A stretch of DNA of 64,000 nt from an uncultured Candidatus Binatia bacterium (GCA_965242525.1 OZ251459.1:2784001-2848000), one strand, 5' to 3'; positions 15,949-31,375 are shown, counted from the stretch's first letter. Translations and numbers: made by a program. Notes: generated by a model not told the origin, from the sequence alone.

Positions 15949-16632
15949 CTACATCCCCACACGGTTCCTGAAGAAGTTCCAGGCGCGTTCCATGTCCGGG
16001 GGCGGGAGGGCCTCCCTCTGCCGCGGGCCCGCGGCCTCCCGGGGAAGGAACCGCGGCTTGCCCACCTGCATGGCGCCGTAGAGCACCTGCGCCGCTTCCT
16101 CCAGGTAGATGGCCATCATCACCGCTTCCGGGACGGTCCTGCCCACGGTCACCTGCCCGTTCCCCTGGAGCAGCACCGCGGGCCCGTCGGACAGGGCCGC
16201 GGCCGCGCCCTCGCCCAGGGCGCGGGTGGAGACGAGGTCGATGGTCCTGAAGACCGGCACCCCGCCGCTGAAGAAGCTGCCGTGGTTGTGCACCGCGTCC
16301 AGAGGCGTGTCCGTCACCGAGAAGACGTTGGCGGTCCGGGCGTGGATGCGCGTGACCGCGTTCACGTCCGGCCGGGCGTTGAAGACCGCGGTGTGGAGCG
16401 CGGTCTCGAACGGCGGCGGCGCCGGCGCTTCCAGCACCTGCCCTTGCAGGTTCAGGACCACGAGCTGGCTTGCCTCCACCAACTCCAGGCTGACCCGCGG
16501 GGTGATCACGAACAGGTCCGAGTCCGGGATCCGGGCGCTCACGTGGCCGAAACCCTGCACCAGGCCCTCACGGCTCAAGATCCGCGCCGCGGCGATGACG
16601 TCCTCGTTGAGTTGCTCGACTCCGTCCGGCAT
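15949..16632 (-). CDS. Class II aldolase/adducin family protein
   Basis: GFGHVSAR, ETALHTAVFNARPDV, VLLQGNG. Confidence 0.85.
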   Translation of the reverse strand: MPDGVEQLNEDVIAAARILSREGLVQGFGHVSARIPDSDLFVITPRVSLELVEASQLVVLNLQGQVLEAPAPPPFETALHTAVFNARPDVNAVTRIHARTANVFSVTDTPLDAVHNHGSFFSGGVPVFRTIDLVSTRALGEGAAAALSDGPAVLLQGNGQVTVGRTVPEAVMMAIYLEEAAQVLYGAMQVGKPRFLPREAAGPRQREALPPPDMERAWNFFRNRVGM

Positions 16633-16732
16633 CCTTCGTCTCCCACTTCGGCTTCGAGGATAACTCCGGTCCCCTCCCCCCGAACTCCGATTACTACCAC
16701 ACGTACCGGCGTGCTGACCAGCCAGGCATCGA

Positions 16733-16939
16733 GGAACATCTGGACGATCGGGACATGCAGGATGGATTCCCTCGCCCCGACCCTCCTATCCCCGTTCGCC
16801 CCGAACGTAGCGAAGCGGAGTCCCTCCGTTCATGCCGAGCGTAGCGAAAAGCGGAAGCCCCCTTCCGTTCGTCCTGAGCGTAGCGAAGCGGAGTCGAAGG
16901 ACGCGCTCATGCCCCCTGTCCCGATTGTTCAGAGGTTCC
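16733..16939. mobile_element. MITE family A with triplicated core
   Basis: GGAACATCTGGACGATCG...CGATTGTTCAGAGGTTCC; flanks TCGA/TTGA. Confidence 0.75.
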
Positions 16940-17139
16940 TTGATTTCGGGGCGTTTGCGAGCGACGTAGTTGTCGGCGGTCATAGGGCCGCCGACCGGGC
17001 GGCTCAAGGATCCCCTCGTTCCTTACGCGAGGGAGAGGTTGCAACCTGTTGAAATTACGGGCAAAATGTAACTTGTCATTGCAAGATGGCACGTTGCCGA
17101 GCCTGCTGGGGGAGTGCGGACATGCTCATCAAGCTCTGG

Positions 17140-17242
17140 AAGAGGCGAACCCGAAGCCCATTACCATTCCGAACAAGCCGGGCTACCGTGACCCCGATGC
17201 AATCCCTAGCGGAACGTGGGAGACGTTCGAGCGTATCCCGGG
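17140..17242 (+). pseudogene. Remnant of a DUF4276-like protein C-terminal part, ending at a partial family A core
   Basis: TIPNKPGYRDPDAIPSGTWETFERI resembles the YRDPDAI.GGTWE.LER segment I recall from DUF4276 proteins. Confidence 0.5.
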
Positions 17243-17321
17243 ACCGTCCTGAGCGAAGCGAAATCGAAGGACGCGCTTTCACGGAAACGCCGCCTATACC
17301 CTCCATGCAGGGAAGAAGCCC

Positions 17322-18434
17322 ATGATGAAGAACAGGCTCGATTCCATAACCCTCAAGGGCTTCAAGACCATTCAATCCCTGGATGACTTCAAGCCCGGTT
17401 CGTTGACGGTGCTCATTGGCCCCAACGGAGTGGGCAAGTCTAACTTCATCTCGTTCTTCCGCATGATGAGATGGGCGCTGGGGGATGAGGGCGGCCTCCC
17501 GGAATACGTGGCGCGGCAAGGAGGCGCAAGCGCGCTCCTGCACGACGGTTCCGATCGCAGCCGCGAGATCGAAGCCGAACTGACGATCCGAACCGTTCGC
17601 GGCGAGAACCAATATGGTTTCCGTCTGATCCATGCGGCCGGAGACACACTGATATTCACCGTCGAACGCTACCGTTTCTCCAGCGAAAGCCGCGACGATA
17701 CGGCCCCCTGGCAGGGCGAGGACGAGGCCGGCCACCGCACTCCGAGCCTCACTCGACACGCCGACACCCACCGGACGGCTCTCGTCATTCGGAACCTCCT
17801 GCGCAGGATCATCGTGCACCAGTTTCACGACACCTCTGCGACCGCCCGTATCCGGAACAAATGGAACGTGCAAGACGCCCGTTATCTCAAGGAAGACGCA
17901 GCCAACCTCGTGCCGGTGCTGAATCGTCTGCAACAGCACGAACCCGATTACTACCGGCGGATCGTGGACACCATTCGCCTGATCCTGCCCTTCTTCTCGG
18001 ATTTCGAGTTGGTTCCCGACCATGGATACCTGCTGCTCGCCTGGCGTGAACGGGACAGTGACCGGGTGTTCGATGCGTCACAGGCATCGGACGGGATGCT
18101 CCGAGTCATGGCCCTCGTTACGCTCCTGCTTCAACCGAAAGACGACCTGCCTGACGTCCTGATCCTAGACGAACCGGAGCTTGGACTTCACCCCTACGCC
18201 ATCAACGTGATAGGCGGGCTGATACGCGCCGTGTCCACGAAAGTACAGGTCATTGCCGCTACCCAGTCCACGGCCTTCGTGGACAGCTTCGATCCCGAGC
18301 AAATAGTCGTCGTGGAGCGCGACGGACGCAGGTCCGTATTCCGACGGCTGGATTCCGACGGCCTGGCGGAGTGGCTCGGAGACTATTCGCTGTCCGAGCT
18401 ATGGGAGAAGAACGTGCTCGGCGGACGACCCTGA
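17322..18434 (+). CDS. ABC/AAA_21-type ATPase 1 (no intact partner)
   Basis: GPNGVGKS, ASDG, LILDEPELGLHP, LWEKNVLGGRP tail. Confidence 0.88.
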   Translation: MMKNRLDSITLKGFKTIQSLDDFKPGSLTVLIGPNGVGKSNFISFFRMMRWALGDEGGLPEYVARQGGASALLHDGSDRSREIEAELTIRTVRGENQYGFRLIHAAGDTLIFTVERYRFSSESRDDTAPWQGEDEAGHRTPSLTRHADTHRTALVIRNLLRRIIVHQFHDTSATARIRNKWNVQDARYLKEDAANLVPVLNRLQQHEPDYYRRIVDTIRLILPFFSDFELVPDHGYLLLAWRERDSDRVFDASQASDGMLRVMALVTLLLQPKDDLPDVLILDEPELGLHPYAINVIGGLIRAVSTKVQVIAATQSTAFVDSFDPEQIVVVERDGRRSVFRRLDSDGLAEWLGDYSLSELWEKNVLGGRP

Positions 18435-18505
18435 TTTCGGAGAATGGCTCAACCGCTTGGAAAGTATCGAGTAAGGATGACGCCGCGATGGGGAAGATTG
18501 ATCCC

Positions 18506-18607
18506 ATGACGTATTCTGAACTGCTATCGTGTATCACCGCACGCCCCGATGTCTTCAGCAAGGAGGACCGCAACATCGCCGCCTTCGAGATGGAGCGCGC
18601 AGTATAG
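18506..18607 (+). pseudogene. Possible DUF433 antitoxin N-terminal remnant
   Basis: ELLSCITARPDVF resembles DUF433 start (LL.RIT..P.VFGGKP), then diverges. Confidence 0.4.
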
Positions 18608-18701
18608 GTCTGTCGCAGGGCCGACGCCGTCCTGTCCCGCTCCAACAGGCATCCATGGATGCAGGTTGAAGCCCTGACGACCCATACCAGGAGATTGACA
18701 C

Positions 18702-19886
18702 ATGCTCATCAAAAGCATCCGGCTGACCAACCTGCTCTCCTTCGGACCGGACACGGAGGAGTTGGAGCTCGCGCCCCTGAACGTCTTGATAGGACCCAAC
18801 GGATCGGGGAAGTCGAACTTCATCGAAGCGCTGGGCCTGTTGAAGGCCATACCCAGGGACCTCACGGCTCCCATCGTGGCGAGCGGAGGCATCTACAACT
18901 GGATCTGGCGAGGCGAACCCGAAGCGTCCCTTGCCTGTATCGAGACGGTTATCGACTATCCCCAAGCCAATTATCCCCAGGCTCGGACACTCAAGTATCG
19001 TCTCGGGTTCACCGAAAAGGGTCAAAGGTTCGGATTGACGGAGGAATGGATCGGGAATGAATCTGCAATCGAAGACCATCGTAAACCGTATTTTTACTAC
19101 GAGTTGCAGGGCACCCGTGCGGTGCTGAACTACAAGGATGGCGAAGAACGTCAGTTGCGACCCGAGGAGTTCGATCCCGAGCAGTCCATCCTCGCCCAGC
19201 GCAAGGACCCGGACCATTACCCGGAATTGACTTGGCTCGGCCAAGAGTTCGCCCGTATGCGAATCTATCGGGAGTGGTCCTTCGGTCGGCAGACGCCGCC
19301 ACGTGTGCCACAGGATGCGGCACTGCCCAATGACTTCCTGAGCGAAAACGGGAACAACCTCGGCCTGGTGCTGAACAAGCTGCGAAGGACACCGAGCACC
19401 AAACAGCAAATGCAGGAAGCGTTATGCCAACTCTACGACAGCGTTAAAGACTTCGACGTGGTCATAGAAGGCGGAACCGTTCAAGTCTTCATGGAGGAAG
19501 ACGACATAACCAGGACGATGCCGGCCACACGCCTGTCGGACGGGACCTTGCGCTACCTCTCCCTGCTGACCATACTGTGCCATCCCAATCCGCCGCCGCT
19601 GGTCTGCATCGAGGAGCCGGAACTGGGTCTGCATCCCGACATCCTGCCCGGTCTCGCCGACCTCATCCGGGACGCCTCCGAACGGTGCCAATTGGTCGTG
19701 ACCACCCATTCGGACGTACTCGTGGACAAGCTCACCGACACCCCCGAAAGCGTCGTCGTTTGCGACAAACACGACGGCAAGACGGAAATGCAACGCCTGG
19801 ACAAGGACAAGCTCTCCGATTGGCTCAAGAAATACAGTCTGGGAGACCTATGGACGAAAGGCGGGTTGGGAGGGACGCGCTGGTGA
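18702..19886 (+). CDS. ABC/AAA_21-type ATPase 2
   Basis: GPNGSGKS, LSDG, CIEEPELGLHP, TTHS; AGGAG RBS. Confidence 0.9.
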   Translation: MLIKSIRLTNLLSFGPDTEELELAPLNVLIGPNGSGKSNFIEALGLLKAIPRDLTAPIVASGGIYNWIWRGEPEASLACIETVIDYPQANYPQARTLKYRLGFTEKGQRFGLTEEWIGNESAIEDHRKPYFYYELQGTRAVLNYKDGEERQLRPEEFDPEQSILAQRKDPDHYPELTWLGQEFARMRIYREWSFGRQTPPRVPQDAALPNDFLSENGNNLGLVLNKLRRTPSTKQQMQEALCQLYDSVKDFDVVIEGGTVQVFMEEDDITRTMPATRLSDGTLRYLSLLTILCHPNPPPLVCIEEPELGLHPDILPGLADLIRDASERCQLVVTTHSDVLVDKLTDTPESVVVCDKHDGKTEMQRLDKDKLSDWLKKYSLGDLWTKGGLGGTRW

Positions 19887-20503
19887 AAACCATAATATAC
19901 GTCGAAGGCGGTGGAGACACCAAGGTTAACAGAACCGCATGTCGGAAGGCGTTTAACAGGTTTTTCGACAAGGCAGGGCTGAAGGGTCGTATGCCCCGGA
20001 TTTTCGCCAGTGGCGGCCGGGAGCAGGCTTACAGGGATTTCTGCAACGACTTCGAGAAAGCCAGCAGCAGCGAATTCATTGTCCTGTTGGTGGACAGCGA
20101 GACACCGGTGGACAAGGACTCTGATGCCTGGTCGCACTTGAAGGCCCGCCCCGGCGACAACTGGGGCAAACCTGCGGGAGCAGACGCTGACAACGTGCAT
20201 CTCATGGTCCAGTGCATGGAAGCCTGGTTCCTGGCGGACAAGGAGGCACTGAGCGAGTTCTTCGGCCAGGGATTCAACCGAAACGCCTTGCCAGCGCACG
20301 TAGAGATCGAAGACATCCGGAAGGAGGACATCTATCAAGGCCTAGAGAGGGCCACGCGCCAGTCTGTCCGAAAGAAAACGTACCACAAGGGACGCCATTC
20401 GTTCGACATTCTTGCCGAACTGGATCCTGCCAAGGTGGTAAATGCGTCGCCGCACGCGGAGCGACTCGTCCGCACGCTGCTGGACAAGGCGTCGGGAAGT
20501 TGA
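19883..20503 (+). CDS. DUF4276-like (TOPRIM-like) partner protein
   Basis: IYVEGGG, LLVDSE, MVQCMEAWFLAD, YHKG; GTGA overlap with ATPase 2. Confidence 0.8.
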   Translation: MKTIIYVEGGGDTKVNRTACRKAFNRFFDKAGLKGRMPRIFASGGREQAYRDFCNDFEKASSSEFIVLLVDSETPVDKDSDAWSHLKARPGDNWGKPAGADADNVHLMVQCMEAWFLADKEALSEFFGQGFNRNALPAHVEIEDIRKEDIYQGLERATRQSVRKKTYHKGRHSFDILAELDPAKVVNASPHAERLVRTLLDKASGS

Positions 20504-20633
20504 AGTTGCCGTCAAGTCTTGCCGGTCGAGGTTCGGGGAATCTCCCTGTTTCACGGATATCCTTCGATGCTTCCCGTATCGCGCTTCCGGGAGGCTGGCT
20601 TGCAAGTTTCGGCGGGGTTTCCGAGGGAATGCG

Positions 20634-21842
20634 ATGCAGGTTGCCTTCGTGATCGAGAATCTTCATGGGGGCGGCGCTCAACGGGTGGTGCTGGGTGTGG
20701 CGGGAGGATTGGCCGACCTTGGCCACACGGTGGACCTCGTGCTGTTCGAGCCGATCATTCGCCAGACGGTTCCGGACGGAGTGCGGCTGTTCGCCATAAA
20801 AGACACGCCGGACAAGCCCACGGAAGAACGATTCGGTCAGGCGCTGGCGAGAGTGGCGCAACTCTCCGTCACTTCCGGCATTCCGGACTGGATACGAGTG
20901 GCAGGCGCTTTCCGCTGGGATCCGTTCTGTCTTCCGAGCAGACGCAGGGTTCATATGGCTCGCGGCATGACACATTACGCGGCCCGTGAGCAGCCGGACT
21001 GCATCCTGCCGTCGCTGCACCGTTCGATCGTGGCCACCCTCCTGGCTCGCGGTTTGTCCACCCGCCATCCACCCGTCATACCCATCGTCCATTCCTCCCT
21101 GGAAGCCGGTCAGAACCTACGGACCAGAGGCAGGTACCGGCGCCTGTTCGCGGCCGCGACACATTTCGTTGGCGTCTCCCGGGGCGTCTCCGACAGTCTG
21201 GAAACGGTCGCCAGGGTGCCGAGAGACAGGATCAGGACCATCTACAATCCGGTGGTCACCCCGGACCTTCATGACAAGGCCGCAGAGCAACCGGACCATC
21301 CGTGGCTTCGGGACGACGGCGCGCCGGTGGTCCTCGCCGCAGGTAGATTGACACGGGAGAAGGACTATCCGACTCTCATCAAGGCCTTCGCCCGGCTCGC
21401 AACTCGGCGCCCGTGCCATCTGGTCATCCTTGGCGAAGGAAGCAAGAGGAAGGAGATCGAAGGACTGGTCGAAGAATCTCGGCTGATCGACCGGGTCTCG
21501 TTGCCTGGATGGGTGGAGAATCCCTTTGCCTTCATGGCTCGCGCCTCCCTGTTCGTGCTGTCATCCCGATGGGAAGGGTTGCCGACGGTCTTGGTGGAGG
21601 CGCTGGCCTGCGGCTGCCCCTGTGTCAGCACGGACTGTCCTTCCGGTCCGGCAGAGATACTTCGGAATGGAGAGATCGGGCCGCTCGTTCCCGTCGGCGA
21701 CGACGTAGCTTTGGCGGAGGCGATGGATCGGGTGTTGGACCGTCCGCCGGAACGTCATGTGCTGCAACGGCGGGCTGCCGACTTCTCCGCAGACCGGGCG
21801 GTCACCGCTTACGAGAAACTGCTCTCGGAACTCGTTCGTTGA
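20634..21842 (+). CDS. GT4 glycosyltransferase
   Basis: GGGAQRV, IYNP, AGRL..EK, SRWEGLPTVLVEALACG. Confidence 0.9.
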   Translation: MQVAFVIENLHGGGAQRVVLGVAGGLADLGHTVDLVLFEPIIRQTVPDGVRLFAIKDTPDKPTEERFGQALARVAQLSVTSGIPDWIRVAGAFRWDPFCLPSRRRVHMARGMTHYAAREQPDCILPSLHRSIVATLLARGLSTRHPPVIPIVHSSLEAGQNLRTRGRYRRLFAAATHFVGVSRGVSDSLETVARVPRDRIRTIYNPVVTPDLHDKAAEQPDHPWLRDDGAPVVLAAGRLTREKDYPTLIKAFARLATRRPCHLVILGEGSKRKEIEGLVEESRLIDRVSLPGWVENPFAFMARASLFVLSSRWEGLPTVLVEALACGCPCVSTDCPSGPAEILRNGEIGPLVPVGDDVALAEAMDRVLDRPPERHVLQRRAADFSADRAVTAYEKLLSELVR

Positions 21843-21898
21843 TTCGGTTCCGATCCGGTCACGTGGGGTCAACGTCAGGAATCCCGGGGAAACATTAC

Positions 21899-23164
21899 GT
21901 GCACGTTGCCTTCGTGATCGACCACCTTGGGGGCTACGGCGCCGAGCAGGTCGTGTACAGGTTGGTCCACGGTCTGAGCGAGCGCGGCCACAAGGTGGAC
22001 GTCATACTGCTTCAGCCGATCATCCACCGTCGCCTTCCTCGAAACGTCCGGGTGTTCTTGCAAGGAGGGAAACCGGACCGGCTCACGGAAGAACGGTCCG
22101 CGTACGTGCTTGAGCGGACCATCTGGCTCCGTCCACGGTCTCGAACCCTCGAATGGGCGCATCGAGCCTTCGAATGGGCGTGCGCGGCAAACGTCCTGCA
22201 CCGGGATCGTCGTGTTCTGCCGAGCAAGCGCTTGCTTGACCAAGCGCGTGCACTGGCCTCGTACTTGAATGTTGAGGGACCGGACTGCGTGCTGCCACAA
22301 CTCCCACGTGCACTGTGGGCGACGCTTCTGGGATGTCGCATAACAGGTGGACACCCACCCGTCATAGCCGCGATTCACGGCAACGTTCATCATCTAAGCC
22401 GCCGTTCCAAGCTAAAGTTCCACCGCCTGTTTTCCGAGGTGACACATTTCGTGGGAGTATCTCATGGCGTTTCCGACAGTCTAATGACCGCATTCGAAGT
22501 CCCGAGAGAACGCATCACCACGATCTACAATCCAGTGGTCATGCCGGATCTTCACGTCAAGGCTCTGGAACAGCCGCACCATCCGTGGTTCCTGGACCGC
22601 GATGCGCCATTACTTCTTGCCGTCGGACGACTGGAGGAAAGGCAAAAGGATTGGCCAACTCTGATCAAGGCTTTCACCCGTCTCGCAACGCAGCGTCCGT
22701 GTCGCCTGATCATTTTGGGCGAAGGACCGCTCAGGAAGCAGATCGAAGGACTGGTCGAAGAATCCAAGCTGACCGACCGGGTCTCGTTGCCGGGATGGGT
22801 GGAGAATCCCTTCGCCTTCATGGCCCGGGCCTCCCTGTTCGTGCTGTCCTCCCGATGGGAAGGGTTGCCGACGGTCCTGGTGGAGGCGCTGGCCTGCGGC
22901 TGCCCTTGCGTCAGCACCGACTGTCCTTCCGGTCCGGCAGAGATACTGTTGAACGGCGACCTCGGGCCGCTCGTGCCCGTCGGCGACGACGCAGCGTTGG
23001 CGGAAGCAATGAAGCGAGTACTGGACCGGCCGCCCGACAAACGGGTGTTGCGGCAGCGGGCTATGGACTTCTCGGCTGAAAGAGCCCTTGACGACTACGA
23101 GCAGTTGATCGAGAGCCTGCTCGTCTCGCACGGCAAGACGTCCGAAGACGCGCGTCTTGCCTGA
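21899..23164 (+). CDS. GT4 glycosyltransferase
   Basis: GGYGAEQV, IYNP, EGLPTVLVEALACG; GTG start by alignment with paralogues. Confidence 0.88.
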   Translation: MHVAFVIDHLGGYGAEQVVYRLVHGLSERGHKVDVILLQPIIHRRLPRNVRVFLQGGKPDRLTEERSAYVLERTIWLRPRSRTLEWAHRAFEWACAANVLHRDRRVLPSKRLLDQARALASYLNVEGPDCVLPQLPRALWATLLGCRITGGHPPVIAAIHGNVHHLSRRSKLKFHRLFSEVTHFVGVSHGVSDSLMTAFEVPRERITTIYNPVVMPDLHVKALEQPHHPWFLDRDAPLLLAVGRLEERQKDWPTLIKAFTRLATQRPCRLIILGEGPLRKQIEGLVEESKLTDRVSLPGWVENPFAFMARASLFVLSSRWEGLPTVLVEALACGCPCVSTDCPSGPAEILLNGDLGPLVPVGDDAALAEAMKRVLDRPPDKRVLRQRAMDFSAERALDDYEQLIESLLVSHGKTSEDARLA

Positions 23165-23183
23165 ACCAGTGAAGAAAAGCCGC

Positions 23184-24425
23184 ATGCATATCGCTTTCGT
23201 CATCCATGATCTTGGCAGAGGCGGCGCCGAGCGAACGGTGCTCCAACTCGCGTCAGGGTTGAGCTTGGCGGGACACAGGGTTGACGTGGTTCTGTTGACG
23301 GGAGAAATTGGTTATCCCGAGGAGGTCCCGGACGAGGCAGGCCTCTTCGTCTTGCAGAAGGCCCTCGACAGACGTACGGAGGACGGTGCAGCAGATGCGT
23401 TGCGGCGTGCGGTCGAGCTTCGCGGGTCGCCGCAGGTTCTCGATTGGTTCCGTCTGGCAAGCGCCTTGAACTGGGACCCGCTCTGCCTGCCTCACAGGGG
23501 ATTGGTGCGTCAGGCTCGCGCCATCGCGTCCTACATGGAGCGTGAGAAGCCGGACTGCGTGCTGCCAAGCCTCCCCCGTGCGGACGCAATTACCCTGTTG
23601 GCCTCTCGCCTCCTGAAAGAACCTCCGCCAATCATCCCGACGCTTCACAACGTCAGTAAGAGTAACCGACCCATCGACGATCGTCGATACCGTCGTTTAT
23701 TCCCCTACGCGTCGCACGTCGTCGCGGTATCCCAAGGCGTCGCAGACGATCTGGCCGTAACCGCGGACGTACCGAGAGACAGGATCACCACCATATACAA
23801 TCCGACGATCACGCCGAACCTGCATGCCAAGGCCGCAGAGCAGCCGGATCATCCTTGGCTCCTCGACCGTGGCGCGCCCGTGATCCTCGCCGCCGGGCGA
23901 CTTACGGAACAAAAGGACTATCCCACCCTCATCGAGGCTTTTGGCCGTCTCGTGGCGCGGCGCCCGTGTCGCCTGGTTATTCTGGGTGAAGGCCCCCTGC
24001 AGCAGGAACTCGAAGGACTCGCCGGGAAGCTCGACCTTACCGACCGAATCTCGTTCGCCGGGTGGAGCGACAATCCCTTCGCCTTCATGTCCCGCGCCTC
24101 CCTGTTCGTGCTGTCCTCCCGATGGGAAGGTTTTGGGATGGTTCTTGCGGAGGCGCTGGCCTGCGGCCTCCCCTGCGTCAGCACGGACTGTCCTTCCGGT
24201 CCGGCAGAGATACTGCTGAACGGAGAGATCGGGCCGCTCGTTCCCGTCGGCGACGACGCAGCGTTGGCGGAGGCAATGGGACGAGTCCTCGACGACCCGC
24301 CCGACCGGCGCCTGTTGCAACAACGGGCAGCGTATTTCTCCGCAGACAGGGCCGTGGCCGCATACGAGGAATTGATCACATCCGTAGTCCGGCGTTCCGG
24401 GGGACCCCCATGCGTATCGTCCTGA
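23184..24425 (+). CDS. GT4 glycosyltransferase
   Basis: GRGGAERT, IYNP, EGFGMVLAEALACG. Confidence 0.9.
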   Translation: MHIAFVIHDLGRGGAERTVLQLASGLSLAGHRVDVVLLTGEIGYPEEVPDEAGLFVLQKALDRRTEDGAADALRRAVELRGSPQVLDWFRLASALNWDPLCLPHRGLVRQARAIASYMEREKPDCVLPSLPRADAITLLASRLLKEPPPIIPTLHNVSKSNRPIDDRRYRRLFPYASHVVAVSQGVADDLAVTADVPRDRITTIYNPTITPNLHAKAAEQPDHPWLLDRGAPVILAAGRLTEQKDYPTLIEAFGRLVARRPCRLVILGEGPLQQELEGLAGKLDLTDRISFAGWSDNPFAFMSRASLFVLSSRWEGFGMVLAEALACGLPCVSTDCPSGPAEILLNGEIGPLVPVGDDAALAEAMGRVLDDPPDRRLLQQRAAYFSADRAVAAYEELITSVVRRSGGPPCVSS

Positions 24426-25189
24426 TCAGCCTGGAGCGCGCGGCGCACCGGCGAGCGGAAATGGCGCGCGAGTTCGACGCCGCCGGCTTGCGGTACGAGA
24501 TCAAGACGGCCATCGACGGCCGCCGCCTTTCGCCGGACCATCTCGTCCAGGTCGATTGGGAGGGGCGGCGGCGTCTCGGCCTCCGTCCCCACGACAACGG
24601 CTCCATTGCCTGTTGGCTGACGCATCGAGAGGTCATGCGCGACCTCGTAGCGAACGGACCCGACATGACGGCGGTGTTCGAGGACGACGCCCGGTTCACC
24701 CCCGAGCTCCCCGATGTTCTCAAGGCGCTGGAAACCAGGCCCTTTGCCTTCGACCTCGTGGCACTCTACCGGGGACATCCCCGACGGCCCTTCGTCCCGT
24801 GCGTCTCGCTGGCGGACGGCCACTCCGCGGGCCGGGTGCGGTACTCCGACACCGGCTCCGTGGGATACGTCATCACTCGACCCGCTGCCCGCCATTTTCT
24901 CGAGACGACGCCCAGGATGGTCCTGGCCCTGGACCACGCCCTGCTGCGCTTCTGGGTCAGCGGACTCAACACGTTCTACGTGGACCCGCCGGTGGTCCGT
25001 CACGGCGGCGCGCACGACTCCGAGATCGACGACCACCGCGGCACAGCGCGGGCCGAACGAGACGCGACCGATGCACCGGCCGCGATCCTCTGGCGGCGCA
25101 CGGTTGCCGGCGCACGGCGAGCGGTCAAGAAGCGTCTCGCCTTCCGCAGGCTCCTGCGGGGAGAGATCGGAGTGACGCGATGGCTTTAG
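24410..25189 (+). CDS. GT25 (LPS biosynthesis-like) glycosyltransferase
   Basis: LISLERAAHRR, AIDG, IACWLTH, VFEDD. Confidence 0.85.
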   Translation: MRIVLISLERAAHRRAEMAREFDAAGLRYEIKTAIDGRRLSPDHLVQVDWEGRRRLGLRPHDNGSIACWLTHREVMRDLVANGPDMTAVFEDDARFTPELPDVLKALETRPFAFDLVALYRGHPRRPFVPCVSLADGHSAGRVRYSDTGSVGYVITRPAARHFLETTPRMVLALDHALLRFWVSGLNTFYVDPPVVRHGGAHDSEIDDHRGTARAERDATDAPAAILWRRTVAGARRAVKKRLAFRRLLRGEIGVTRWL

Positions 25190-25398
25190 GGCCCTGCTCC
25201 GCGTGAGCCGGACAGCCGAACGATCGGGTACTGCGGATACCTCCGAGCTACCTGATACCTCTTGGCAGGGTCCGAACCGAAGTCCACGACTTCCCCGGGA
25301 TGCCATACTCCTTGACGGAAAGGACCCTTGTACGATAGGAAAACAGGCACGTTAGAGAAGCTATTCTACCTTGCAGTCCCGGATCGAAGGGAAGGCCG

Positions 25399-26519
25399 AT
25401 GCTGCAAAGACTATACGTCGACAACTACAAGTGCCTGGTCAATTTCGACCTGCGCCTTCAGCATCTCTCGCTACTGCTCGGACCCAACGGCGTGGGAAAG
25501 ACCTCCGTCCTCGACGTCGTGTTCGCACTACGCCGGCTTCTCGACGGGAGCGCCAGGATCACCGACGCCGACGCGTTTCACGCCCGCACGTTGACCTGCT
25601 GGCAAAAAGGGCAACTTCAAGTCTTCGAGATCGAGGTCCTGCTGGACCCGGATCGTTTTACGTATCGGCTCGAGGTGGAGCATGATCGGTCGGCCCGGCG
25701 CGCTCGTATCCAACTTGAGAAACTGGTTCACCAGGATGACCGGGGTAAAGGACCCCTGTTCGAGTTCGAGAATGGCGAGGTGCGGCTCTATCGTGACGAC
25801 TACTCGCCTGGTCCCAAGTACACTTACGATTGGTCGGAGTCCGCGCTGGCCCGAATCATGCTCGGGAAGGACAACCAACGCCTTGCGCGCTTTCTGGATT
25901 TCGTCAGAAAGATCATGGTGTGCAGCCTCTACCCACCCGTCTTCAGCACAGAATCGAGGAGCGAGGCCCCGCTCCTTCAGCGAGACTCCCGGAACTTCGC
26001 GGCTGGTATCGGCACGTGGTCCAGGAACGTCCGGACCTGTTGTCGGAGTTCACGAATACGTTGCAAGAAATCATCCACGGCTATCGCAGCATCCGGCTGG
26101 AAAAAGTCGGCCAGGAGACACGCGCCCTCATGGTCGCATTCGCCGAGGGCCGCGAACGATACGAGTTGTCGTTCGATGAGCTTTCGGATGGACAGCGGGC
26201 GCTCATCGCGCTGTATGCCATGGTTCACCTGACCGCAGACCAGGGCTACACGCTTTTCCTCGACGAGCCCGACAACTATGTCGCGCTTCCGGAGATTCAA
26301 CCCTGGCTCCAGGAGATCGAAGACGCCTGCGGAGAGACGGTGCCACAAGCCGTAATCAGCTCTCATCACCCGGAATTGATCGACTATCTGGGCTCCGAAA
26401 ACAGCTACATGCTTCAGCAGGAGAAGTCAGGGGTCGTGACAGTGCACAAACCGGAGGCCAATCCGGCCGAGCCCGGGCTCAAGCTTTCCGAGTTGATCGC
26501 CAGGGGATGGGATACGTGA
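25399..26519 (+). pseudogene. ABC/AAA_21-type ATPase 3, frameshifted near 26001
   Basis: Walker A GPNGVGKT in one frame; LSDG, FLDEPDNY, SSHHP in another; one added base joins RNFA to GWYRH. Confidence 0.8.
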
Positions 26520-26568
26520 GCAGGGAAGCGCACATCGTCCTGTTGTGCGAAGACAAGCAGCATCAAAG
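26516..26568 (+). pseudogene. First 17 codons of the ATPase 3 partner, cut by element B
   Basis: GTGA overlap; VSREAHIVLLCEDKQHQ is a TOPRIM-like hydrophobic-CED start. Confidence 0.6.
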
Positions 26569-26893
26569 GGATCTTCCGGCTTTTGTGTGGGTAAGGTAGA
26601 AGGGAAGGATGAGGGAAAGGGGTCACGCCGTCATTGCTCCGCAGACGCCTGCCCCGTCATTCCCGCGAAAGCGGGAATCCAGTTTCATTGTTCTCATGCA
26701 GGGCGCCATGGGGTTGGGTCGGAAGGATGGAAGCACGAGGAGTTTTCACAAGGATGGATTCCCGCTTTCGCGGGAATGACGGGATGGGGCGTCCACGCCG
26801 CCAAACCGAGGACGGCATGGTCGGAATGGGAGAGAAGCGGATTTCGTCGCGTGCGTGGGGAGTGTCTCAACCCACACGAATTCCTGAAGAGCC
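26569..26893. mobile_element. MITE family B (ISL3-like ends) with an inverted pair of dRS3-like palindromes
   Basis: Ends GGATCTTCCGGCTTTTGTGTGGGT and ACCCACACGAATTCCTGAAGAGCC; same ends at 36335-36639 and one end at 8162. Confidence 0.75.
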
Positions 26894-27164
26894 CGTAGAG
26901 AAAGGAATCCCGATACTTGTATTTGAGGTCTTCGTCGATTTGGCCTTTCTTGAACCGCTGGAGATAGGCGCCGCCCTCCGGATCGGACCCGGCCGGGTTT
27001 TGCGGATCCTTGAACTCGATGTACAGGTAATGGTCAGGAAGCTCCACGATGAAGTCCACGGCCTTCATGCAATGGCTGAGTCCGTGGTCGAGTCCGTCGA
27101 ACTTTCGCGCAGACACGACGTTCGTGAAGGTGATTTGCAGGTCGTCTTCGGTGAAGGTGCTCAC
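26894..27164 (-). pseudogene. ATPase 4 partner (PD-(D/E)xK-like), truncated by element B
   Basis: KAVDFIVE...IEFKD; frame runs into element sequence after KYRDSFLY. Confidence 0.6.
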
Positions 27165-28195
27165 TTCAGCGACCCTCCCAAGCTGCGCTCGATCTTCCGG
27201 TCGTAGAGGCTGTCGAACGTTTCTGCAATCGCATTGGGATCGATTTCAAGGTAACTGTTCGCAGTGTTGCACGCTATGTCCACCTCCCCTTCCCCTTTCA
27301 ATTGGTACAGGGAGTGAAAAGCCACCTCGTCCGTCTTCTCCTTTCGGAGATCGATCTCCTCCAGGATGACGTAATCGTGCGTCGCAAGGAATACCTGGAC
27401 TTCCCTGCGTTGGAGTTCGAGCAGGATGGCCGTCAGTGGGCCGAACAGTTTCGGGTTCAGGTTGGCCTCGGGCTCGTCCCAGAACAGTACGGAGCCGGCC
27501 CCGAGGGAGCCGTTCTGTACCAACAACCACAACAGCGCGAGCTTGCGCATCCCTTCCGCGAGCAACGTGAACTCGAGGTTGCCCTGTGAGTTGTGCAGGA
27601 AGAACTCCTCGTTGCGGACGGTGACCTTGCCATCCATGGCTTTCTCGAGTTCGCGGAGCAGGCTCTTGCGTTGTTGGTCCGCGGGGCCGCGCAGCACCGG
27701 GAGGTAGGCGCGGCGCAGGATGTCCGCATAGACTTCCTCGAAGTGGATTTCGCGGCTCTCGTAAAGGGACCGGAACCCCGGGGCGTTGGAAAGCATTTCC
27801 TTTACCGGGATGTACACGCTCTCGACGGGTTCTCGAGTCCAATCCGGAACGCCGGTGACGCGGACCTTGTCGGAAGTCGCTTTCGTGACCAAGGTAGAGA
27901 ACGAGGCGGTCAACTTGCGATGGCCGCGGCACACTTCCACGACTGCTCCTGCGCGCCCCTGCTGCCGCTTCACCAGCCGACCCGGCCCCCGGCCTGACGG
28001 CAGAAACACCCGGATCATCTTCTCCACGAAATGTACGTCAGGCCTGGATGCCTCGCACGCCGCATAGCAGACCTTCATCAAGTGGGTCTTGCCCGTGCCG
28101 TTGGCTCCCACGAGGACGTTGATGCCGGGGGAGAAGTCGAGGCTGAAATCCGAAAACGCCGTAAAGCGTTTCAGTCGTACTCTGGTCAGGGCCAT
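27161..28195 (-). CDS. ABC/AAA_21-type ATPase 4
   Basis: GANGTGKT, LAEG, FWDEPEANLNP, ATHD. Confidence 0.88.
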   Translation of the reverse strand: MALTRVRLKRFTAFSDFSLDFSPGINVLVGANGTGKTHLMKVCYAACEASRPDVHFVEKMIRVFLPSGRGPGRLVKRQQGRAGAVVEVCRGHRKLTASFSTLVTKATSDKVRVTGVPDWTREPVESVYIPVKEMLSNAPGFRSLYESREIHFEEVYADILRRAYLPVLRGPADQQRKSLLRELEKAMDGKVTVRNEEFFLHNSQGNLEFTLLAEGMRKLALLWLLVQNGSLGAGSVLFWDEPEANLNPKLFGPLTAILLELQRREVQVFLATHDYVILEEIDLRKEKTDEVAFHSLYQLKGEGEVDIACNTANSYLEIDPNAIAETFDSLYDRKIERSLGGSLK

Positions 28196-28211
28196 GCCTT
28201 GGCACCCTCCT

Positions 28212-28364
28212 TCAGCGGCTCTCCCGTTTCCTTGTGGCGTCCCACTCCACGCCGGTGCTCAGCAAGTCGCCGTTGATCCTGACCTGGCCCTTCAGGCGCC
28301 CGATGAACTGCGCAAAGCCCGGTTCATCTTCGGTCCGGTCGTCCTTCGTTGCTTTCGGTTCCAT
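28212..28364 (-). pseudogene. Possible antitoxin C-terminal remnant (Phd-associated tail)
   Basis: FIGRLKGQVRINGDLLSTGVEWDA resembles antitoxin tails; no toxin follows. Confidence 0.35.
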
Positions 28365-28468
28365 CTCTCGTTCGCTTCCATCTTTCACCAAGGTATTCCT
28401 CTGGCATGGACCGGTTGACATGAATCTGGTATCGCACACCGGGACGGACATTTCCACCCGGCTGTGCT

Positions 28469-28497
28469 TTGACCCTTCCTTGGCAAGGGGTTATGGT
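28469..28497 (+). promoter_or_regulatory. Sigma70-like promoter
   Basis: TTGACC-17 bp-TATGGT, 6 bp before ATG 28504. Confidence 0.5.
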
Positions 28498-28503
28498 GTC
28501 TCC

Positions 28504-28638
28504 ATGAGCCTTCCCGGCACCGCTTGGCGCAAGCTGCCCATCGGCGTCCAGGCCTTCCGCAAGGTCCGCGAAGAGGGCCGCTACTACGTGGGCAAGACCC
28601 CCTGGATCGAGCGGTTGGTGGACGAGGGAAACCAATGA
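28504..28638 (+). pseudogene. N-terminal remnant of an AAA-ATPase-like/PD-(D/E)xK family protein
   Basis: RKLPIGVQAFRKVREEGRYYVGKT matches the LPIG.Q.F..IR....YVDKT start; stops before RPRRFGKS. Confidence 0.65.
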
Positions 28639-28982
28639 CGGACGCGAACGAACAGGTCACCTTCGAGGAGTTCCGGCGGATACGGATCCATGCCGGCACC
28701 GTCGTGGAGGCGGCGCCCAATCCCAAGGCGCGGACGCCGGCCTACGTGCTGCGCATCGACTTCGGGCCGCTGGGGATGCGCACGAGTTCCGCCCAGGTCA
28801 CCCGGAACCATACACCGGAGCAGTTGGTGGGCCGGCAGGTGGTGGCGGTGCTGAACTTCCCGCCCAAGCGGGTGGCGGGAGTCAAGTCCGAGGTCCTGGT
28901 GCTCGGGGCGGTGGACGAAGCGGACGGCGTAGTGCTGCTCCAGCCGACGTTCCCGGTGGCCAACGGCTCCCCCGTGGCCTGA
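28635..28982 (+). CDS. csaA: CsaA/Trbp111 tRNA-binding chaperone
   Basis: IDFGPLG..SSAQVT, VLNFPPKRVAGVKSEVLVLG. Confidence 0.85.
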   Translation: MTDANEQVTFEEFRRIRIHAGTVVEAAPNPKARTPAYVLRIDFGPLGMRTSSAQVTRNHTPEQLVGRQVVAVLNFPPKRVAGVKSEVLVLGAVDEADGVVLLQPTFPVANGSPVA

Positions 28983-29000
28983 GTACGGACTCCCTCCCCC

Positions 29001-29072
29001 TGTGGGAAAGCGTGTCCTTCGACTTCGCTGCGCTACGCTCAGGACGAACGGAGACGATCGTTCCGGGTTTCC
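29001..29072. repeat. Partial family A copy between convergent genes
   Basis: Core plus one end GATCGTTCCGGGTTTCC. Confidence 0.65.

Positions 29073-29095: not shown

Positions 29096-31375
<2,280 letters not shown>

Follow-up and report, generated by a model that had tools for sequence, protein, structure and literature searches.

A low-GC island of HEC-01- and HEC-02-type ATPase genes in an uncultured Candidatus Binatia bacterium, probably a decaying defence locus that has lost nuclease partners

A 64,000-nucleotide stretch of DNA from an uncultured Candidatus Binatia bacterium (GCA_965242525.1 OZ251459.1:2784001-2848000), hereafter the window, carries an island of genes for ABC/AAA_21 ATPases in which an earlier note, made from the sequence alone, had seen four ATPase modules with repeatedly lost partner genes. 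GC content is about 0.67-0.72 in the window and falls to 0.58-0.64 over 16-28 kb, and GC at third codon positions (GC3) falls in the island from about 0.9 to 0.64-0.78. Open reading frames (ORFs) of the island were picked by GC3 and then scanned with Pfam and PADLOC profiles (19 ORFs, 12.4-31.4 kb). Pfam AAA_21 and PADLOC matches bear out all four ATPase genes, numbered 1 to 4 from left to right (17322-18434, 18702-19886 and 25399-26519, all +; 27161-28195, -). The island as inventoried holds three modules of the HEC-01 kind and one HEC-02 module, together with a scrap of a DUF4276 gene, a PF09820-type stub and a glycosyltransferase cluster; module 2 (18702-20503) alone among the modules is complete. 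Both kinds pair an ABC ATPase with a second protein, which is a TOPRIM protein in HEC-01 and a NERD protein in HEC-02, as defined by Payne et al. (bioRxiv 10.1101/2024.01.29.577857). As argued below, the locus is very probably a defence island in decay, in which nuclease partners have been lost.

ATPase 2 (18702-19886, +), an intact HEC-01A ABC ATPase of 394 amino acids (aa), matches PADLOC profile PDLC04177 over its full length (expect value, E, 8e-176) and AAA_21 at E 9.5e-38. Its partner at 19883-20503 (+), an intact Toprim-like gene of the DUF4276/HEC-01B kind, matches DUF4276 at E 1.8e-26 (1-191 of 192) and PDLC04201 at E 7e-80, and its GTG start overlaps the ATPase 2 stop codon (GTGA). 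The encoded protein conforms to each of the 36 columns that are invariant among 48 homologues, including E8, D71 and E73, which would be the Toprim glutamate and acidic pair as the published accounts describe them. This is the only intact coupled partner in the island, as had been noted. One account counts DUF4276 as a Toprim member and Mad4 homologue (PMC12065111), and another lists it among the partners of AAA_15/21 ATPases (PMC11464382). Module 2 is a candidate for a defence function. Elsewhere in the same genome, outside the window (C1:4076897-4079498), lies a paralogue of ATPase 2, 47% identical, without a DUF4276 gene. Behind it come a small ORF, a repeat element and a second ORF; by eye only, the two ORFs resemble a HicB antitoxin and the start of a DNA methyltransferase (restriction/BREX-type).

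A DNA search of 40 relatives gave one close genome, G023, which is 90-93% identical in the flanks; over shared stretches the window and G023 differ at about 7-12% of DNA positions. Intact partners of ATPases 1, 3 and 4 are all present in G023, and the window retains 12, about 20 and 90 of their codons, respectively. Module 2, conversely, has decayed in G023, where two internal deletions have left it in pieces; having lost this module while the window lost other parts, the two lineages thus differ in what they lose. Likeness to G023 in the left flank stops at 16644, the sequence that flanks the island on the left is found 340 kb off in G023, and modules 1 and 2 stand in a different order, so there has been rearrangement besides deletion.

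ATPase 1 (17322-18434, +; 370 aa) is an intact, orphaned HEC-01A ABC ATPase (PDLC04175 at E 1.7e-126, positions 1-362 of 363; AAA_21 at E 4e-31) that keeps all invariant columns of a 46-sequence family alignment and is 88% identical in nucleotides to its G023 orthologue. In G023 the ATG of an intact 225-aa partner (DUF4276 at E 1e-54, PDLC04188 at E 2e-74) overlaps the stop codon of that orthologue. When the junction is aligned with G023, the ATPase 1 stop in the window is seen to adjoin the final 12 codons of this partner (FGEWLNRLESIE, then the stop codon; 18436-18474, +): about 636 bp are gone, beginning at the start codon, with AT microhomology at the junction. The earlier note was right that ATPase 1 has no partner gene, and overlooked these last codons. 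Of the 14 public runs listed for the stretch, four were examined, as contigs, and two of them, X1 and X2, may be the source sample. A 2982-base contig of X1 and X2 covers 17248-20229 with zero differences and spans the junction, so the deletion of partner 1 stands in those data. Relatives of ATPase 1 that are 64-73% identical occur in very distant phyla (Acidobacteriota, Chloroflexota, Rhodothermales, Gemmatimonadota and others; L087-L097), and identity this high across such distances points to frequent horizontal transfer of the module.

ATPase 3 (25399-26519, +), a distant HEC-01A-like ATPase, lies in two frames, an N-terminal part at 25399-26232 and a C-terminal part at 25830-26519, each with AAA_21/HEC-01A matches, the likeness to HEC-01A being weak. 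The frame is broken by a one-base deletion after 26002, and this single A is the only frame-breaking difference from G023, in which the orthologue is one 375-aa ORF (PDLC04182 at E 2.5e-26) that sits, with its 187-aa partner, elsewhere in the chromosome. In the window the partner is reduced to a 30-codon ORF (26507-26599, +), whose blastn likeness to the intact G023 gene ends at 26565, about 20 codons in. It is a stub, much as the earlier note had it, and of a family other than DUF4276. Scans of the stub against Pfam and PADLOC gave no match worth noting.

The intact partner of ATPase 3 in G023 (L024:5987-6550) matched no Pfam and no PADLOC family, comparing its profile with the DUF4276 alignment showed no relation, and Foldseek against the PDB gave no match at E <= 0.001, with weak hits to the C-terminal regions of OLD proteins. 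It belongs to a family of proteins of about 185 aa with 387 homologues lacking any domain call. Its structure model is confident (predicted local distance difference test score, pLDDT, 90.3), and in a wide structural search Toprim domains of the OLD family came near the top (Thermus OLD, Z 7.9; Burkholderia OLD, Z 6.8; GajA, Z 5.7; AriB, Z 5.3), the whole range of Z 5.3-7.9 being middling. Conserved C-E-D-x-Q and D-G-D motifs contain the invariant residues of the family (C14, D16, Q18 and D84-G85-D86), which fit a Toprim-like site. Judged from the model, the protein is likely Toprim-like, and module 3 would then work like HEC-01 and yet not be a member by profile.

Module 4 runs in the opposite direction and converges on module 3. 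ATPase 4 (27161-28195, -; 344 aa) is an intact HEC-02A ABC ATPase (PDLC04213 at E 3.5e-124, positions 1-335 of 337), 85% identical in amino acids to G023. Downstream lie the first 90 codons of its partner (26896-27164, -), which match the NERD-like HEC-02B profile PDLC04229 at E 7e-32 over positions 1-95 of 171. The partner is cut, as the earlier note had observed, and is of the NERD-like kind rather than DUF4276-like. The G023 orthologue is intact at 171 aa, and the alignment with the window stops at codon 90, after ...YRDSFLY. From there the ORF continues to 26694 (26694-27164, -) through repeat sequence, and this part of it (residues 84-156) matches over 20 genomic sites by tblastn. Dispersed repeats with up to about 290 genome copies fill 26566-26895, between the cut partner genes 3 and 4.

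By their profile matches, ATPases 1 and 2 are full-length HEC-01A proteins, ATPase 4 falls in HEC-02A and ATPase 3 is distantly HEC-01A-like; these are described families, so on this footing the island is no new system. The earlier note had thought it the best candidate for one, and PADLOC speaks against that, placing both genes of module 2 as well as ATPases 1 and 4 in its families. HEC-01 (Hma-embedded candidate 01, PADLOC-DB v2) is matched not only in the full-length HEC-01A hits of ATPases 1 and 2 and the HEC-01B hit of the 19883 gene, but also in the order of ATPase then nuclease on one strand with overlap of stop and start codons. The island differs in that one of three such modules is complete, only module 2 having an adjacent HEC-01B gene, and in that module 3 has a distant ATPase (E 2.5e-26 for the G023 copy) with a partner family outside Pfam and PADLOC. 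Likeness to HEC-02 lies in ATPase 4 (HEC-02A, E 3.5e-124) and the ORF downstream of it (HEC-02B, E 7e-32), whereas full-length HEC-02B is lacking in the window, in which 90 of 171 codons are followed by repeat sequence. HEC-02 is reported to have defended in assays, with both genes required (bioRxiv 10.1101/2024.01.29.577857), and the copy in the window is therefore predicted to be inactive.

PARIS likewise pairs an AAA_15/21-type ABC ATPase with a small Toprim nuclease encoded by its own gene, and it is the best-studied model for such pairs; in it, AriA is reported to sequester AriB and to release it on a phage trigger (Burman et al., Nature 2024, PMC11464382). HEC-01 is not known to cleave tRNA or to respond to a trigger. 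Membership in PARIS was rejected, since AriA profiles score far below HEC-01A (for ATPase 1, E 8.7e-29 against 1.7e-126); AriB is absent among the 14 PADLOC families matched by the 19883 protein. OLD and Gabija GajA were rejected too: the ATPases of the island have 344-394 aa without a Toprim part, the nuclease being a separate gene, and Old/GajA profiles match short stretches of them only. For MADS, in which a mad3 ATPase and mad4 (DUF4276) occur with further genes, ATPase 1 matches the mad3 profile far less strongly (E 9e-29) than HEC-01A, and no other mad profile appears in the 19 ORFs of 12.4-31.4 kb among the matches listed (the best 25 families for five ATPase ORFs).

To see which gene of such modules breaks first, we took a census of the genus, 28 genomes, of which 22 have DUF4276 matches (88 in all). 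It kept the 67 rows above the Pfam cut-off, which make 66 loci after two halves of one gene were joined, and set aside 21 weaker rows, since a partial match among them can come from a protein that is intact but divergent. Sixty of the loci are from other genomes; the ATPase was scored by a profile of 11 ATPases, and doubtful nucleases were judged by eye. Both genes are intact at 51 loci, the nuclease alone is broken at nine, the ATPase alone at two and both at three, and one locus at a contig end could not be assessed. The two ATPase-only breaks are both frameshifts and both in one genome (G010). Nine or more nuclease-only breaks among 11 would be found with P=0.002 if breaks follow gene length (nuclease share 0.35) and with P=0.03 at even odds. 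As the census is anchored on the nuclease, modules that have lost this gene entirely escape it, an omission that counts against the bias found. Among 80 cross-phylum loci of ATPase 1 relatives, chosen by ATPase likeness, 76 were assessable: both genes are intact at 66 and both broken at two, the ATPase is intact with the nuclease broken (seven) or absent (one) at the other eight, and the reverse occurs at none.

The genome of the window itself has eight DUF4276 matches and many AAA_21 genes. A second HEC-01-like array, outside the window (C1:2079963-2087363), has a tandem pair of ATPases with 81.5% identity; the nuclease of the first is deleted from its start with the last 36 or so codons left, the same kind of deletion as at partner 1, and the second keeps its nuclease. 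Two DUF4276 genes from different species (L040, G019:C2:1985584-1986240; L041, G041:C160:18981-19637) share the codon at which an in-frame TGA interrupts them, a codon that encodes W in an intact homologue; the remaining frames are open, and the ATPases are less than 60% identical to each other. The shared TGA could be a recurrent TGG-to-TGA change or a read-through stop. A nuclease stop at a third locus (L127) lies at a different codon.

The island is flanked by a class II aldolase gene (15949-16632) on the left and by a P-type ATPase gene (29096-31375), with tRNA-Pro after it, on the right. By blastn against the bacterium's own genome, short dispersed repeats resembling repetitive extragenic palindromic (REP) sequences or miniature inverted-repeat transposable elements (MITEs), with up to about 680 copies, lie at the left edge (16720-16940); others with copies in the hundreds lie at 17230-17280, and at the right edge, before the P-type ATPase gene, those at 28980-29060 have about 700. 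The dispersed-repeat families of the window, with 230 to about 700 genome copies each, mark both the island edges and its internal breakpoints, and in some frames they encode peptides such as PAKAGIQ, FPRKRES and RFRGNDG.

Near the left edge, a mid-gene scrap of a DUF4276/HEC-01B gene without adjoining ATPase (17130-17237, +) matches PDLC04202 at E 2.5e-5 over positions 120-156 of 204, the match lying in residues 28-63 of ORF 17049-17252. The earlier note had seen a DUF4276-like scrap at 17140, and blastp against the DUF4276 ORFs of relatives agrees, with five matches (52-75% identity, E 2.6e-8 to 1.7e-5) where 0 of 200 shuffled sequences gave any. On this likeness the scrap is the remains of one more module. 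The overlapping ORF 17086-17325 gave no Pfam or PADLOC match worth noting.

The first 33 or so codons of a PF09820-type (AAA-ATPase_like) gene lie at 28537-28636 (+), matching PF09820 at positions 1-32 of 201 (E 1.7e-6) and cut at 28636; in G023 the gene is an open frame of 566 codons, of which about 1.6 kb has no counterpart left in the window. Some 10 kb away, 18535-18615 is a repeat with 10 copies by blastn against the own genome, being the sequence that normally comes after PF09820-type genes, whose start has 13 copies. Its counterpart in G023 sits behind a full PF09820-type gene, and in four public runs loose contig ends at 18554 carry the end of a gene of this type. Multi-copy PF09820-type genes may have driven rearrangements between the window and G023.

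Between modules 2 and 3 are four glycosyltransferase genes (20442-25189, +; three GT4 paralogues and one GT25), with Glycos_transf_1 matches of E 1e-33 to 1e-38, a Glyco_transf_25 match of E 8e-16 and no PADLOC match; their listed ORF starts are probably too far upstream. They share the low GC3 of the island, show a weak match to the Pfam family 'GT4 in conflict systems' (E 1e-8 to 1e-14) and are present in G023 too. They may alter the cell surface.

Selection on the orphan genes was measured against G023 as the ratio of nonsynonymous to synonymous substitution rates (dN/dS), which is 0.35 for ATPase 1, 0.26 for ATPase 4, 0.32 for the HEC-02B remnant and 0.23-0.28 for the parts of ATPase 3. 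Derived amino-acid changes show no excess in the window (ATPase 1, 22 in the window and 15 in G023; ATPase 4, 10 and 14, polarised with outgroups saturated at synonymous sites). The frame-broken ATPase 3 is as low as the others, so dN/dS cannot separate kept genes from recently dead ones, and the lesions are too recent for this test.

We consider it very probable that the low-GC stretch at 16.7-29.1 kb, which has dispersed repeats at its edges and inside, is a defence island built of known kinds of module and now decaying, its partner genes having been lost after the split from the nearest sampled relative and its orphan ATPases being leftovers. The nuclease partners of modules 1, 3 and 4 would have been destroyed after the split from G023, partner 1 through a clean deletion of about 636 bp from its start codon, and the convergent partners 3 and 4 by loss of their far ends where repeats now sit, possibly in a single event. 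A module without its nuclease would be unable to defend, and the orphan ATPases would therefore most likely be recent leftovers. That nucleases go first would fit if the nuclease is costly through damage to its own cell, or if loss of the ATPase is penalised as long as an active nuclease is present. One of the two explanations offered in the earlier note, a decaying hotspot that sheds its toxic effectors first, is thus the one upheld, by the intact partners in G023 and by the 9 to 2 count of the census. The island is ordinary gene decay with an interesting bias, without a new defence system.

Similar asymmetry is familiar from the orphan methyltransferases of restriction-modification systems and from solitary antitoxins, for which the harmful half is lost first and the harmless half lingers. 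Here too the putatively harmful half of a two-part module is lost first; the difference is that an orphan methyltransferase or antitoxin protects against the half that was lost, whereas restraint of the nuclease by the HEC-01 ATPase is only putative.

Several observations weigh against decay as the explanation, or against parts of its support. The orphan ATPases 1 and 4 do not look neutral by dN/dS. At site 26002, all six covering contigs (two each from runs X1, X2 and X5) have the missing A, which restores the frame of ATPase 3. The PARIS nuclease AriB is reported to be only mildly toxic alone (PMC11464382), so a simple toxin logic is no more than conjecture here, and in the only published test, in E. 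coli, HEC-01 gave no protection against the phages tested (bioRxiv 10.1101/2024.01.29.577857). The census loci are kin and only partly independent, two of the nine nuclease breaks (L040 and L041) sharing their TGA codon, and breaks of the frameshift type in relatives are possible sequencing errors. The cross-phylum set, by the way it was chosen, is biased to intact ATPases.

It is an even call whether some of the apparent breaks are assembly errors. The contigs at 26002 favour this, and the one-base deletion in ATPase 3 may be such an error, but contigs can drop minority forms, and runs X1, X2 and X5 hold further variants of 25.5-26.5 kb, at a depth above that of neighbouring genes. The deletion of partner 1, on the other hand, is bridged by an exact contig in two runs, and at the cuts in partners 3 and 4 repeat sequence has taken the place of long stretches, unlike a single-base slip; contigs of the public runs break in the repeats at the 26565 and 26896 junctions.

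Some further explanations would give the orphan ATPases a role. We think it unlikely that nuclease-first loss is a rule of HEC-01, with the orphan ATPases selected as an inhibitor sink or for a remote nuclease, or with the ATPase restraining the nuclease and so not lost first; were it true, the decay pattern would reveal the workings of the uncharacterised HEC-01. The orphans might be kept for a job that needs no nuclease, such as binding phage inhibitors, shielding neighbours or other regulation, which we regard as quite improbable. In its favour, nuclease-only breaks are the commoner though the ATPase gene is about twice as long; the listed partner-less ATPases all keep Walker A and, except for one (L059), the C-terminal motif; two deletions in the own genome start at the first codon of the nuclease and spare the ATPase; and AriA is reported to bind Ocr directly (PMC11464382). 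However, the frame-broken ATPase 3 has as low a dN/dS as ATPase 1, so that conservation may mean only recent loss, a costly nuclease or a harmful ATPase-first loss predicts the same bias, and the three of 66 loci with both genes broken indicate that orphans do decay on.

The other explanation offered in the earlier note, an undescribed system in which the partner-less ATPase 1 (and 3 and 4) is kept to feed the 19883 nuclease and so widen the sensing of the island, has little to commend it and is highly improbable: ATPase 1 is intact, invariant residues included, lies directly upstream of module 2 and has a dN/dS of 0.35, and sharing would be plausible in the second array (C1:2.083-2.086 Mb), but ATPases 1 and 2 are only 29% identical, their partners (PDLC04188 in G023 and PDLC04201) are of differing DUF4276 subfamilies, ATPase 4 is HEC-02 with a NERD nuclease as partner, G023 shows the reverse, with module 1 whole and module 2 decayed, and a second such ATPase within 2.5 kb occurs at 0 of the 80 cross-phylum loci of ATPase 1 relatives. 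The tail shared by ATPases 1 and 2 (W-L-x-x-Y-[ST]-L-x-[DE]-[LI]-W...GG), which had been proposed as a docking link to one partner, is a family-wide feature, found in six ATPases of the genome, some with a nuclease of their own, and invariant or nearly so in the 46 ATPase 1 relatives. Predicting a complex of ATPase 1 and the 19883 protein, from alignments with 46 and 48 rows and without controls, gave a score of 0.00, which bears neither way. By the 80 loci, the unit is one ATPase with one nuclease.

The decaying island is a clear, dated example of erosion: one lineage lost three nuclease partners, the other a whole module. Two features lift it above the ordinary, the measured nuclease-first bias and the unnamed, Toprim-like partner family that is intact in G023; defence-finding tools would miss modules that use this family. 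The bias (9 against 2 in the genus, 8 against 0 in a biased sample) is a clue to how HEC-01, a candidate system that is widespread and has no known activity, works: it hints that the nuclease is costly, that the ATPase is unsafe to lose first, or that the ATPase is valuable alone.

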